A stretch of DNA of 4,939 nucleotides from a virus (taxonomy: Duplodnaviria > Heunggongvirae > Uroviricota > Caudoviricetes), in the IMG/VR virus record IMGVR_UViG_2579778674_000008; one strand, given 5' to 3'. Made by a program: the position numbers and the translations under genes. Below the pieces are notes generated by a model, which was given only the letters and a program-made list of their open reading frames with translations, searched no databases and was not told where the DNA came from. Positions 1,024-4,939 of the stretch are shown piece after piece (position 1 is the first letter of the stretch; the number at the start of each line of letters is the position of its first letter).

Positions 1024-1614
1024 ATGTCTCGAATTTTTGCTTACTGTCGGATATCAACGCTGGATCAGACCACCGAAAATCAACGCCGGGAAATCGAAAG
1101 TGCAGGTTTTAAAATCAAACCTCAGCAAATAATCGAAGAACACATTAGCGGCTCAGCAGCAACCAGTGAGCGTCCTGGTTTTAACCGGTTGCTTGCTCGC
1201 CTGAAATGTGGTGATCAATTGATTGTGACAAAACTGGATCGCCTTGGTTGTAATGCAATGGATATCAGGAAAACAGTGGAACAACTGACCGAAACAGGTA
1301 TCAGAGTGCATTGCTTAGCATTGGGTGGCATTGACCTGACCAGTCCAACAGGAAAAATGATGATGCAAGTAATTTCAGCAGTCGCTGAATTTGAACGAGA
1401 CCTTTTACTTGAACGCACTCATTCCGGGATAGTAAGAGCCCGCGGCGCAGGGAAACGTTTTGGTCGACCACCTGTGTTAAATGAAGAACAGAAACAGGTG
1501 GTATTCGAACGAATTAAGTCAGGTGTAAGTATAAGTGCCATTGCCCGGGAATTCAAAACCTCGCGGCAAACCATTTTAAGAGCCAAAGCAAAACTTCAGA
1601 CACCTGACATATAA
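1024..1614 (+). CDS. pin: Serine recombinase, Pin/Gin/Hin-type DNA invertase (PinR/PinQ-like), 196 aa
   Basis: The N-terminus [15 protein letters not shown] carries the resolvase/invertase catalytic motif (Arg9, Ser11). The C-terminus has a helix-turn-helix ([21 protein letters not shown]). The 196-aa length and the position next to tfa/stf match lambdoid prophage Pin invertases. I recognise the protein as PinR/PinQ-like from memory but cannot tell which paralog. Confidence 0.95.
1104..1122. promoter_or_regulatory. Inverted repeat AGGTTT-taaaatc-AAACCT inside the 5' part of pin; candidate Fis-binding / recombinational-enhancer element
   Basis: Read directly: 6-bp arms with a 7-bp AT-rich spacer, about 80 bp into the pin coding sequence. 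The embedded 15-mer GTTTTAAAATCAAAC fits the loose Fis pattern (G at -7, C at +7, AT-rich centre). Hin/Gin/Cin enhancers are known to lie within the first ~170 bp of the recombinase gene. The functional assignment is speculative. Confidence 0.2.
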
Positions 1615-1620
1615 AAAATA

Positions 1621-1635
1621 ATCTCGGTGTGAGAT
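1621..1635. terminator. Short hairpin ATCTC-ggtgt-GAGAT between convergent pin and tfa; weak candidate bidirectional terminator
   Basis: A 5-bp stem with 5-nt loop lies 7 bp after the pin stop codon. On the minus strand it is followed by TATTTTTTAT, a good U-tract for the stf-tfa transcript. On the plus strand it is followed only by GCTTT. The stem is short and AT-rich, so confidence is low. Confidence 0.25.
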
Positions 1636-1711
1636 GCTTTACGTCTTCCAAGCCCCCTTCCTTGCCGTAAATGGAAAGATACATCTAATTATAGAATTTA
1701 TATGTTTTACC

Positions 1712-2287
1712 CTACGGCAGTGCTGGCCATTCAATATCCTGTGCAGTTGACGTATCAACACGGTTCAGCAATACCCGATACTTTTTCCATGCTTCCAGCA
1801 ACGAGATTTCTTCCTCCGTTGCAATTTCCAGATCTGCAGCATCCTGAAGCGGCGCAATATGCTCACTGGCTACCTGCATCAGGTTGTTTTTTGTTTCTTC
1901 CGCCTCCCGGATCCGGAACAGTTTTTCTGCTTCCGTATCCTTCACCCAGGCTGTGCCGTTCCACTTCTGAAACTCCCCTTCCGGCGATAACCAAGTAACA
2001 TTTTCCGGTAACGGACCGAGTTCAGAAATAAATAACGCGTTGCCGGAAGCCACGTCATAAACCGTTTTACCCCGATGATCTTCAACGAGATGCCACGATG
2101 ACTCATCACTGTTGAAAACAGCCACGAAGCCAGCCGGAATATCTGGCGGTGCAATATCGGTACTGTTTGCTGGCAGACCTGTATGAGGCGGAATATATGC
2201 ATCACCTTCACCAATAAATTCATTAGTTCCGGCCAGCAGATTATAAATTTTTATGGTCCGTGGTTGTTCACTCATTCTGAATGCCAT
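1712..2287 (-). CDS. tfa: Tail fibre assembly protein Tfa (lambda Tfa / TfaR / TfaQ / TfaE family), 191 aa
   Basis: The protein [54 protein letters not shown]...DIEWPALP is the lambda-type Tfa chaperone as I recall it. A GAGG ribosome-binding site lies 8 nt upstream on the minus strand. Its ATG (2287-2285) overlaps, as TAATG, the stop of the out-of-frame stf C-terminal remnant, which is the canonical stf-tfa translational coupling arrangement. Confidence 0.93.
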
Positions 2288-2391
2288 TATGCAAGCCTCA
2301 CAATATAGTTAAATGCGATGTTTTTGACGGTGTTTTCCGCGTTACCAGCAGCGTTAACGGTGATGGTGTGTCCATGTGAGCCAATCGCAAC
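2287..2391 (-). pseudogene. stf: Displaced original C-terminal coding segment of stf ([34 protein letters not shown]), now out of frame
   Basis: The 67-aa ORF 2287..2490 (-) ends in ...[34 protein letters not shown], the conserved lambda-type side tail fibre C-terminus as I recall it. It is in the +1 frame relative to the main stf ORF and joins it exactly at the 10-bp duplication. Confidence 0.6.
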
Positions 2392-4939
2392 CAATCGCAA
2401 CGGAGTGCGTATGAGCACCAATACCGACAGTATGCGCGTGTGCACCTGCAGATGCTGCTGTGCCGGACAGTGAGTGGCTATGATTACCATCTGTACTGGT
2501 ATTAGCTAACCACCCCGTAGACATACCTACTGAGCCTTGTACACCCCAGGTATTTTGACCTGAGCTTGTATAACCATATTGATAAGTATCTTTAAAAACA
2601 CTGGGGTTAAATCGACGGCCATCTCTATGGCTGTGATTACCAGCTGCATTCGTGCTGCCACTTAAACTATGGGTATGCGCACCAGTGTTATTCGTGGATT
2701 TAGTGCCGTAATCAAACGACGATGTGGTTTTCGTCCCCAAATCCGTACTTGATGCGCTGGCGCTGTGGGTGTGCGATTTAATGCCGTCCTGTTCCTGAGA
2801 CAATACGGCCCGACCACTGGCAGGTTTGCCCTTAATCGTCCAGCCACGCATATCAGGGATCACGCCTGACGGATAAGCCGCTGCAAGTTTCGGGTATGCA
2901 GATTTGTCAAAAGTCTGCCCCTGCATCAGGGCATAGCCAGACGGAACGGTATCTGATGGCCACGGGATTGGTGCACCGACTGGATAAAACTCTGCAGGAG
3001 GATGAGCCGAGGTGTAAAGCTGCGCCCACGGCGACCAGTTTGCGTCGGTCGTATCCCGTCGTGAACGAATAAATGCCGGAGCATGAGCACCGCTTGTACC
3101 ACTCCAGCCGATGAGTAACTCACCTTCGCCAACGGCTGTCATCCCTTTCAGGTGAATGATATTTCCATACGCTGTTGGATATCCGTTGTTATACACCTCG
3201 TATAACTCAAGACCTGTTGCCCCCTGCGTATTGTCTGTCAGCGCGGTTACCCGACCTTTTGAAGACAGATTAACTGATGATACTGCTGTTCCACCTGACG
3301 GTAACGCCCCGATCTCTGATGCCGTTGGCTTATTTCTGGAGTTATAGTCCCTTCGCCAGCCAGGTGAATAATCTGTTCCGTGATTAATATAGGTAAACTG
3401 GGCGTTAGTTGTTCCACCACCAGTGGAGGTGGTCGGTGTGGTAATGCGGATCGTCATCGCTGACTTTATCCCCATTACTTCAATGACAGCTCCGGCGAGA
3501 TGAATATTACCGCAGTCAGTATCAGTAATGATTTTATTATTGCCATAAGACCAGGAACCCTTGCACATCCAGTAGGGATGGTTAAATGCTCCCTGAGAAT
3601 CCAGCCACTCGATAAACTGTGCAGTCGTCCAGTTTCCTGTTATTGTGCTTACTGACCCACCAAAGGCACGGCAGGCACCAATATTTTTCGTAAAGGTGTC
3701 TTTGCCAGGGATATCCGCACCGTTCTGATCTTTCTGCAGACGTTTCTCAGCATTGTCATAGGCTGTTTTTACTGCCTTTGGTGTCGCGGCAAGCGTTTCA
3801 GACGTGCTGTTGGTCGCGCTGCTTAGCTGGATTATCCCTTTCTGTGCTGTCGTTGCATCCTGTGCGGTGTATTTCCCGTTAGCCAGGTCATACGCGGCCT
3901 TAACGGCTTTTGGTGTTGCCGCCAGTGACTCGGAAGTGCTGTTAGTCGCACTACTGAGCTGTACTATCCCCTTTTTCGTCGTGCTCGCATCCTCAAGCGC
4001 CACAGCGGATGCAATATCCTCTGCCCGTTTTGCTGCTGTCTCGGCGCGCGTTGCTGCGGATTCCGCCGTACTTTTGCTCTGTGCTGCCGCCGTCGCACTG
4101 CCAGCTGCCTCTGTCGCCTTCGTGGATGCTGTCGTGGCGCTGCCCTTCGCTGCTGACGCTTGTCTGGTCGCCTCATCTTTTGAAGCAGACGCCGATGAGG
4201 CCGATGACGCCGCCGAACTGGCGGACGATGCGGCAGCCGTTTTTGAGGATTCTGCGCTGGTTTCCGACGCTTTCGCGTTCGTTTCGGATGTCTTCGCTGC
4301 GGAAGCTGACCTCGCTGCTGCGCTGGCCTGTTCAGTGGCTTCGCCAGCCTTCGTTGTGGCTGTTGAAGCGGATGATGCGGCGCTTTCTGCCGACTTTCCG
4401 GCAGCGGTGGCACTGGCTGAGGCCTGCCCGGCACTTGTTGACGCGGCACTGGCAGACGACGCAGCCGCTGTTTTTGAGCCTGCCGCAGCTGAGGCGCTCT
4501 GTCCCGCTGCCGTCTCAGAAGACCTGGCGTTCGTCTCGGACGTTTTTGCTGCCTTCGCGGAATTTGCTGCCGCCGTTGCCGAGGAAGCTGCGCTACTGGC
4601 GCTCGAGGATGCGTTCGTTTCTGATGATTTTGCCGCCTCTTTTGAAGCCGACGCATCCCGGGCTGAGGTGGCAGCTTCTGACGCTTTCGTAGTCGCGGTG
4701 GATGCAGAAGTGGCTGCTGATTGTTGTGACGCTGCAGCATTCGTTTCTGACGTTTTCGCGGCTCTGGCACTGGTAGCTGCCGCGCTTTTTGAGGACTCTG
4801 CAGCGGCAGCACTTTTTTCCGCTTCAGTGGCCTTTGTTGATGCCGTTCCTGCGCTGGAAGACGCTGACTGAGCCGACGAAGCGGCCTGTCCGGCTGACGT
4901 GCTGGCTGCGCGTGCTGAGCCTGCAGCATCAGTCGCATG
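2354..4939 (-). CDS. stf: Side tail fibre protein Stf (lambda Stf / StfR-like); 5'-partial, with C-terminus altered by frameshift
   Basis: Hand translation of the minus strand from 4939 down to 4004 is in the same frame as ORF 2354..4003 and has no stop and no ATG/GTG/TTG, which explains why the ORF track starts at the GTG at 4003. It reads [28 protein letters not shown]...[21 protein letters not shown]..., the Ala/Ser/Thr/Lys-rich repeats typical of StfR-like fibres. Downstream are two copies of the [14 protein letters not shown](S/T)LAATPKAVK tail fibre repeat and a C-terminal array of G-x-H-x-H motifs. The true start lies beyond the window edge. Confidence 0.9.
2381..2400. repeat. Perfect 10-bp tandem duplication CCAATCGCAA-CCAATCGCAA (minus strand TTGCGATTGG x2) causing a frameshift in stf
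   Basis: Read directly: 2381-2390 and 2391-2400 are identical. Removing one copy restores a continuous frame ...[40 protein letters not shown] ending at 2287. With both copies the frame reads ...[17 protein letters not shown] and stops at 2354-2356. Confidence 0.9.
3755..3970 (-). repeat. Two copies of the conserved phage tail fibre repeat ([28 protein letters not shown] / [28 protein letters not shown]), 132-bp period
   Basis: The motif occurs twice in the Stf translation, 44 codons apart, and the underlying DNA is a near-identical direct repeat. The same repeat shows up in the antisense ORF as [12 protein letters not shown] / [13 protein letters not shown]. Confidence 0.65.
4004..4939 (-). 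repeat. Low-complexity Ala/Ser/Thr/Lys/Glu-rich repetitive coding region of stf (degenerate AAKTSETNA-type modules)
   Basis: Across 312 hand-translated codons there is no Met, Val, Leu, aromatic or Cys residue. Degenerate DNA modules recur, for example gcgttcgtttcggatgtcttcgctgc near 4275, 4526, 4611 and 4737. The GCN-rich coding strand produces long open frames on both strands. Confidence 0.6.

Follow-up and report, generated by a model that had tools for sequence, protein, structure and literature searches.

The orphan prophage recombinase PinR belongs to a plasmid-borne family of resolvase-type recombinases and not to the Din invertases

A 4,939-nucleotide stretch of the Caudoviricetes record IMGVR_UViG_2579778674_000008 (hereafter the window) carries a gene of the kind annotated as a Pin-type DNA invertase (pin; 1024–1614, + strand), which faces the end of a single tail-fibre cassette. 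Its 196-amino acid product is identical to PinR of Escherichia coli K-12 (100% identity, with 0 nonsynonymous differences between the genes); K-12 PinQ differs at 2 residues. We found that PinR belongs to a plasmid-borne family of small serine recombinases of the resolvase type and not to the Din family, which includes Gin, Cin and PinE. On balance, we think it probable that pin was captured as a module of a resolvase and its res, after which the site and one catalytic arginine were lost, while the gene itself is still maintained.

This assignment matters because pinR and pinQ carry the annotation ‘DNA invertase Pin homologues’ wherever they occur, and because an anti-phage mechanism proposed in 2025 rests on PinR and PinQ being active invertases (Kirigo et al., NAR 2025, PMC12529663). 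The gene and its orphan status were already known, and a trans role has been published: the same paper describes inversion in trans and saw no part of Rac or Qin inverted among database genomes. The assignment to another family is a modest novelty. It gives the orphan status an evolutionary explanation, captured cargo instead of a broken fibre switch, it points out a large family of plasmid resolvase-type proteins with a clearly readable res-like site, and it leaves the trans-inversion model still in need of controls.

Plasmid-borne relatives of PinR

The reading frame at 1024–1614 encodes Pfam Resolvase (E = 2.5e-36) and HTH_7 domains. PinR is 37.7% identical to PinE, 36.1% to Gin, 36.1% to Cin and 31.5% to gamma-delta resolvase. 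Din family members are about 60–85% identical to one another and act on an invertible segment with opposed Sv/U and Sv′/U′ cassettes; identity is 78.5% between PinE and Gin and 83.4% between PinE and Cin, with a range of 78–83% among Gin, Cin and PinE. The recognition helix likewise separates the two groups, reading SRQTILR in PinR versus (L/V)STLYK in Gin, PinE and Cin.

The close relatives of PinR were found elsewhere. PinR is 84.5% identical to a protein of plasmid pECOED, and proteins at 78–85% identity are abundant in Escherichia, Salmonella, Klebsiella, Providencia, Morganella, Yersinia, Shewanella and others. Homologues at E ≤ 1e-40 were present on 1,858 plasmids (163 at 80–90% identity and 1,490 at 60–80%), and 196-amino acid recombinases approximately 85% identical to PinR occurred on hundreds of plasmids, with further relatives at 59–78% identity in Shewanella, Erwinia, Photorhabdus, Mycoavidus, Oxalobacteraceae, Sphingobium and Rhodobacterales. 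The two plasmid loci that we inspected, on the IncK plasmid pECOED and on pRM10386-2, had no phage or fibre genes nearby. At the nucleotide level, homology between the window and plasmids ran from 968 to about 1655, covering the gene and short flanks (968–1653/1659 against loci L011 and L012), so that the first 40–45 nucleotides beyond the pin stop codon are still part of a recombinase module common to plasmids.

PinR shares with these proteins a Resolvase N-terminal domain followed by HTH_7, a length within 190–200 amino acids, the N terminus MSR(I/V)FAYCR(V/I)ST and at least 60% identity, which places it in their family. The initial annotation had framed the gene as a Gin/Cin/Pin-type invertase; this framing does not hold for a protein that is 36–38% identical to those enzymes, has a different recognition helix and has plasmid-borne relatives equipped with an array of their own. 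Cluster look-ups and the literature, consulted for a name or biochemistry of the plasmid relatives, gave only ‘recombinase family protein / resolvase’, with no characterized member found.

Upstream array and catalytic residues

The res site of Tn3 and gamma-delta consists of subsites I–III, unequally spaced dimer-binding sites directly upstream of tnpR. In relatives of PinR, the 120 bp upstream of the ATG contain half-sites of consensus TGTMCGAAA (GTACTAAA is the consensus in Erwinia phage LS-2018a). We compared loci from plasmids, Erwinia phage LS-2018a, Shewanella, Photorhabdus, Erwinia oleae, Mycoavidus, an Oxalobacteraceae metagenome-assembled genome and a Rhodobacterales genome, and the half-sites formed three subsites whose offsets from the ATG were kept in 8 independent loci: subsite A at −114(+)/−98(−), a 12-2-12 element of 24–26 bp; subsite B, more widely spaced, at −74(+)/−52(−); and subsite C at −34/−21. 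This arrangement of three dimer-sized subsites, which overlaps a TATAAT box, can be read as the organization of a res site.

The corresponding region of the window, 905–1023, is homologous to this array column for column in an L-INS-i alignment of upstream regions, and it has decayed. The remnant of subsite A (ATACGCAT-N8-TTTCGAAC; 912–935, + strand) is homologous to the distal 12-2-12 element GWCCGAAA-N8-TTTCGKAC of the relatives, and that of subsite B (GCACAAAA-N14-TTTCTGAG; 952–981, + strand) aligns to GTCCGAAAGT-N12-ATTTCGKAC. The proximal subsite C remnant (GAACACCAATTTCGTAT; 992–1012, + strand), placed by the alignment, has the sequence GAACACC...TTTCGTAT and probably lies in the promoter region; TATGAT is found at 988–993, where plasmids have TATAAT. 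Over five core half-sites the window has 9 mismatches, compared with 1–3 in intact loci.

Scores with a family half-site matrix built from the intact loci gave the same picture. In the plasmid and Shewanella loci, whose proteins have arginine at the end of the LDRLG motif considered below, subsites A and B scored 28.7–29.1 and 29.8–32.4 bits, respectively. In a prophage with the same ynaE–pin–tfa context and an arginine-bearing protein (L040), the values were 13.9 and 19.6 bits; at a locus with cysteine at this position (L039), they were 7.4 and 13.5 bits; and in the window, which also encodes cysteine, neither subsite rose above chance. Only the right half of window subsite A scored (7.7 bits), its pair falling below the top list, and subsite B was at chance level. 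The half-site at 1003–1014 (− strand), within subsite C, reached 14.2 bits, the best value in the window and the sole strong half-site to survive. No inverted half-site pair in the window exceeded chance, the best scoring 11.5 bits against a shuffle mean of 10.4 and a 95th percentile of 15.4. The recognition helix is essentially unchanged from the plasmid proteins (TSRQTILR in the window, TTRQTILR in plasmids), and these site changes therefore represent decay and not a co-evolved new specificity.

Erwinia phage LS-2018a carries an intact array beside a 61% identical homologue, and no second, inverted copy of subsite A was found within ±7 kb of it; there is therefore no sign of local inversion at that locus. 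Separately, the Erwinia oleae locus (L026) has extra half-site pairs at 1868–1935 (GTGTACGAAAT... and CATGTACGAAAT-N-CTTTCGGACATG), which precede the usual three subsites and could be a duplicated or extended res.

The initial annotation described the invertase as intact on the strength of Ser11. The reading frame is open and Ser11 is there, but the arginine equivalent to R71 of Tn3 and gamma-delta resolvase is replaced by Cys76, which aligns to the arginine of Gin in a HMMER alignment to Protein Data Bank (PDB) sequences. The Cys76 codon is TGT (1249–1251) where relatives have CGT, a C-to-T change. Of the catalytic set (Y6, R8, S10, D36, R68 and R71 in Tn3 numbering), the remaining positions are represented by Y7, R9, S11 and R73, with E39 at the D36 position, as is the case family-wide. 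The motif LDRLGR was present in 112 of 117 scorable homologues, as well as in all Din invertases and gamma-delta resolvase, and LDRLGC was limited to the PinR/PinQ clusters, which hold thousands of member sequences, and to P0009, a related E. coli prophage cluster. In Tn3 resolvase, either substitution, R71A or R71K, eliminates recombination, and single-strand cleavage falls by a factor of roughly 1000 or more (PMC2794168); the chemistry of PinR is predicted to be badly impaired.

The gene has nevertheless been kept as a protein-coding gene. Values of dN/dS were 0.14–0.16 in comparisons with arginine-bearing prophage and plasmid genes and 0.35 between two cysteine-bearing lineages, indicating some relaxation at most; within the PinR clade, the 1–4 synonymous and 0–2 nonsynonymous substitutions were too few for an informative ratio. 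The PinR protein was invariant across several phages. Purifying selection together with this invariance means that some function is selected and that the reading frame is not junk. Two other family members showed damage of different kinds: a metagenomic prophage copy (L041, gene at 38–628) reads LARLGR and has lost the D67 equivalent, and a Photorhabdus copy (L024, gene at 4001) is frameshifted in the helix-turn-helix region. Decay of PinR-family recombinases may thus be recurrent.

Orphan layout and present function

What the initial annotation had seen of the local layout was borne out. The intact pin frame is separated from a single tfa (1712–2287, − strand; Caudo_TAP, E = 2.7e-43) by a 97-bp spacer (1615–1711), as it had stated. 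An alternative fibre cassette was sought with tblastn of Tfa and the C-terminal 560 amino acids of Stf against the window, and only self-matches were obtained; tfa and stf are each present just once in the window, all non-self matches having E ≥ 0.26. To look for Din crossover sites, we used a half-site matrix made from gix, cix and pix (annotated P1 cixL/cixR, sites extracted at the Mu G-segment boundaries and published e14 repeats) together with hix, and scanned in 12-2-12 geometry. The best site in the window, at 3685, scored 7.3 bits, compared with 17.9–29.4 bits for real sites; the mean best score of 200 dinucleotide shuffles was 7.9 bits, and 53% of them reached the value observed. As a positive control, the matrix recovered exactly two sites of 27–30 bits each in e14, Mu and P1, the next best scoring ≤9.4 bits. 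The window, the spacer included, thus has no Din crossover site above chance, and neither has phage 2H10, which encodes an identical PinR: over all 46 kb of its complete genome, the best Din-type site scored 10.7 bits against a shuffle mean of 12.2. The lack of a local substrate therefore extends to a whole phage.

More targeted comparisons were also negative. In P1, cin adjoins the C segment by its 3′ end, and its stop codon and cixL overlap; at the equivalent position of the window, 1590–1660, nothing resembled a site. At the nucleotide level, nothing in the window resembled the P region of e14 or the part around pinE (word size 7, E 1e-3). It is there that the Fis-dependent recombinational enhancer would lie, which Din systems have in the 5′ part of the invertase gene; Fis sites themselves are too degenerate to be scanned for reliably. 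Two candidates were set aside. The sole inverted repeat bracketing tfa and the 3′ end of stf (1675–1692 / 2576–2593, 14/18 matches) is at chance level, because it ranked 16th among 25 listed pairs of similar quality (82 found). The best Din-matrix match, that at 3685, is 3 nucleotides off the register homologous to Mu gixL.

The orphan layout is found in functional phages. Genes 99–100% identical to pin occupy the same place in the lambdoid phages 2H10, Tritos, Kati, HannyBb, mEp460 (mEp460_ev081) and others, where pin converges on the end of one fibre cassette and ydfK lies upstream. No inverted fibre remnant was found in 2H10, Kati or Tritos, each of which has one cassette. The layout is therefore not to be put down to the decay of a single cryptic prophage. 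In Tritos the fibre module is another one, and yet pin, the spacer and the last 112 nucleotides of tfa (1712–1823) are retained. An identical pin–spacer–tfa junction was present in 2,048 of 5,426 complete E. coli genomes; in pin-less prophages, homology starts only at 1722–1725, at the 3′ end of tfa. By this junction pattern of pin-bearing and pin-less prophages, pin behaves as cargo that may or may not be present downstream of tfa.

The 3′ end of tfa itself recurs as a portable junction (1712–1868 in the window, about 6690–6800 in L003 and 3955–4074 in L004), and Kati has an additional 120-bp copy of 1749–1868 (87.5% identity) approximately 2.7 kb upstream of pin. These observations suggest that the tfa 3′ block is a place of homologous fibre-module exchange.

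We propose that pin arose as a lambdoid-phage offshoot of the 190–200-amino acid resolvase-type family, which is mostly plasmid-borne, and not from a fibre switch. Its ancestral cognate site would have been the three-subsite res-like array in the 120 bp upstream, overlapping the promoter, and gene and array would have been taken up by phages as optional cargo downstream of tfa. The array would then have eroded in the window lineage, and the C-to-T change would have turned the R71-equivalent arginine into Cys76, giving an enzyme that is without a cis substrate of either kind and whose catalysis is expected to be poor. As the reading frame is maintained in the absence of a cis substrate, its present role would be exerted in trans, or through binding in place of efficient catalysis.

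Several points weigh against a captured module that has lost its activity. The labels ‘resolvase’ and ‘res’ go by architecture and context, the effect of R71 was measured in Tn3 resolvase and not in PinR, and purifying selection shows that the protein is not simply junk. In the work of Kirigo et al., inversion of the e14 P segment rose from 30% in the wild type to 88% with PinQ overproduction (pCA24N-pinQ), and pinQ deletion lowered survival of T2 infection (PMC12529663); these results argue that recombinase activity is kept despite Cys76. Furthermore, subsite A shares the 12-2-12 geometry of Din sites and its inner CGAAAAC core resembles the left half of pixL, so that cross-recognition of pix is conceivable.

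The strongest rival to the captured module, one that we regard as possible but doubtful, is that PinR and PinQ are active trans invertases of the 1.8-kb e14 P segment, acting at pix sites, with the chimeric StfE2 blocking T2 adsorption. It concerns present function and is compatible with a resolvase-family origin. Action in trans on another segment had been raised in the initial annotation, and a trans effect was indeed reported in 2025 for PinQ/PinR proteins 99–100% identical to that of the window: PinQ reportedly inverts the 1,797-bp P segment in trans and thereby blocks T2 adsorption, PinR being treated as equivalent, strains lacking stfP, stfE or e14 showed no effect, and T2 induced pinQ/pinR 14-fold (PMC12529663). 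The identity of the window protein to K-12 PinR and the purifying selection on its reading frame fit this explanation as well.

The evidence has caveats, however. In a pinE single mutant that retains pinQ and pinR, P is fixed in one orientation, and PinQ was overproduced in a pinE+ background only, according to the strain list and figure legends (PMC12529663). In the same study, PinE overproduction gave 49% inversion, the equilibrium of a reversible reaction, and the 88% obtained with PinQ suggests bias or selection and not simple catalysis. Cys76 stands where Tn3 resolvase has an arginine without which it does not recombine DNA, the recognition helix is unlike that of PinE, Gin and Cin, and the pix half-sites scored −2.5 and −12.4 bits with the family matrix, pix being outside its top matches in e14.

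Rather less likely, in our estimation, is that PinR and PinQ are domesticated, crippled resolvases that act as DNA-binding or partner proteins, for example by biasing or stimulating the inversion carried out by a genuine Din invertase such as PinE, or by regulating transcription. If true, this would account for the 88% P orientation as opposed to a 50% equilibrium and for the locked pinE mutant, both described by Kirigo et al., as well as for the purifying selection.

We consider it unlikely that PinR is a working cis resolvase or autoregulator for which the 912–1012 array is a diverged but functional res or operator, serving multimer resolution or self-repression. The array can be aligned at conserved offsets and retains the strong half-site at 1003–1014, dN/dS is well under 1, and the module is conserved in live phages. 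Nevertheless, the window lacks an inverted half-site pair that beats chance, the recognition helix did not shift together with the sites, and Cys76 stands in the active site set; moreover, lambdoid phages are not known to require a resolvase for multimers.

The relic of a Mu/P1/e14-type host-range switch that the initial annotation had offered, with the stf′/tfa′ cassette and crossover sites deleted or decayed, would draw on the P1-like layout, in which cin abuts the C segment and cixL lies on its stop codon, and on stf. Comparison by tblastx shows Stf to be a homologue of S in both Mu and P1, and the homology of Stf to the constant part of Mu S stops exactly at the position of gixL, the Sc–Sv junction, with divergence beyond. 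This position corresponds to 3668–3693 (− strand; tblastx to Mu and P1, codon alignment), where the junction peptide is F-T-K-N-I-G in Stf and F-I-Q-N-L-G in Mu; its 26-mer has 10/26 identities to gixL and scores −12.4 bits with the Din matrix. It is the common module boundary of these fibres, a ghost rather than a usable site, and gives no tie between pin and stf because pin belongs to another family. A relic switch is very improbable: PinR is not a Din protein, its close relatives have their own upstream array and never accompany fibre cassettes, no inverted fibre remnant was found in the window, 2H10, Kati or Tritos, pin and its spacer behave as an optional insertion downstream of tfa, the gixL register holds only a ghost, and the F-x-x-N-L-G junction is a general fibre module boundary that needs no invertase.

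The surrounding module and known systems

From position 57, the window matches E. coli chromosomes at up to 99.7% identity, with genes there annotated as pinR/pinQ, tfaR/tfaQ and ydfK, and K-12 Rac and Qin are 98.7–98.9% identical to it over pin–tfa. By gene content and similarity, the locus is an E. coli Rac/Qin-type ynaM–ydfK–pinR–tfa–stf module. Prophage, phage and E. coli homology begins at 57, with nothing before it; positions 1–56 are a multi-copy 56-mer of E. coli genomes, beside which an IS2 transposase is annotated at another locus (L042), and they represent an IS2 end that abuts the prophage segment and lies outside the pin module. The IS2 copy sits upstream of ynaM (ynaM/ynfT, 292–405), which is followed by a cold-shock-like ydfK/ynaE gene (474–707, + strand), annotated by reference to a 99.7% identical locus (L001) and to K-12 Rac and Qin; ydfK/ynaE accompanies pin in prophages and phages. 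The ydfK–pin intergenic region contains, in its phage-specific part (735–775), three close (T)TTTCCAC/CTCCAC copies (atttttccac...gctccacttttccac), which are kept in prophage L040. A promoter and terminator scan of 650–1800 yielded nothing decisive, and the spacer has no terminator.

On the other side of pin, stf (2287–4939, − strand) has its 5′ end beyond the window, the 3′ 2.6 kb being visible. A perfect 10-bp tandem duplication (CCAATCGCAA twice, at 2381–2400) shifts the stf frame approximately 30 codons ahead of the normal stop, and Stf ends at 2354–2356 with a foreign tail. The duplication is missing from the 99.7% identical E. coli locus, from K-12 Rac and Qin, and from phages Kati and 2H10; stf here is accordingly either a pseudogene or altered at its C terminus. 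An Rfam scan found an IS009 match (RF02111) at 1746–1944 (− strand; 221 bits, gathering threshold 117) that lies wholly inside the tfa coding sequence on its coding strand, two sub-threshold isrG matches in stf repeats, and nothing else. The IS009 ‘sRNA’ (small RNA) family probably simply captures a conserved part of tfa.

Among known systems, the loci closest to the window are those of K-12 PinR (b1374, Rac) and PinQ (b1545, Qin), which have the same gene order, ynaM–ydfK/ynaE–pin–tfa–stf; the window differs from them in the IS2 end at 56/57 and in the 10-bp duplication that frameshifts stf. The plasmid recombinases (WP_012605115 of IncK plasmid pECOED and WP_000086536 of pRM10386-2) are 84–85% identical to PinR at the amino acid level, with the same length and recognition helix, and their genes are 83% identical to pin at the nucleotide level from 56 nucleotides upstream of the ATG to approximately 40 nucleotides past the stop codon. 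Unlike the window, they keep the arginine in LDRLGR, have an intact three-subsite inverted-repeat array upstream and lack phage neighbours. The Din invertases Gin (Mu), Cin (P1), PinE (e14) and Hin are likewise small serine recombinases, and pin lies beside fibre genes in a convergent layout like that of cin; unlike PinR, however, they have 26-bp crossover sites, alternative cassettes and an STLYK-type helix. Tn3 and gamma-delta resolvases share the Resolvase plus HTH_7 architecture, although identity is 31.5% (gamma-delta) and PinR is not part of a transposon. As in the relatives of PinR, their res has three unequally spaced subsites next to the gene, and the TGT(C/A)C half-site resembles TGTC-type resolvase half-sites; in the window lineage, by contrast, the array has decayed and the R71 equivalent is a cysteine.

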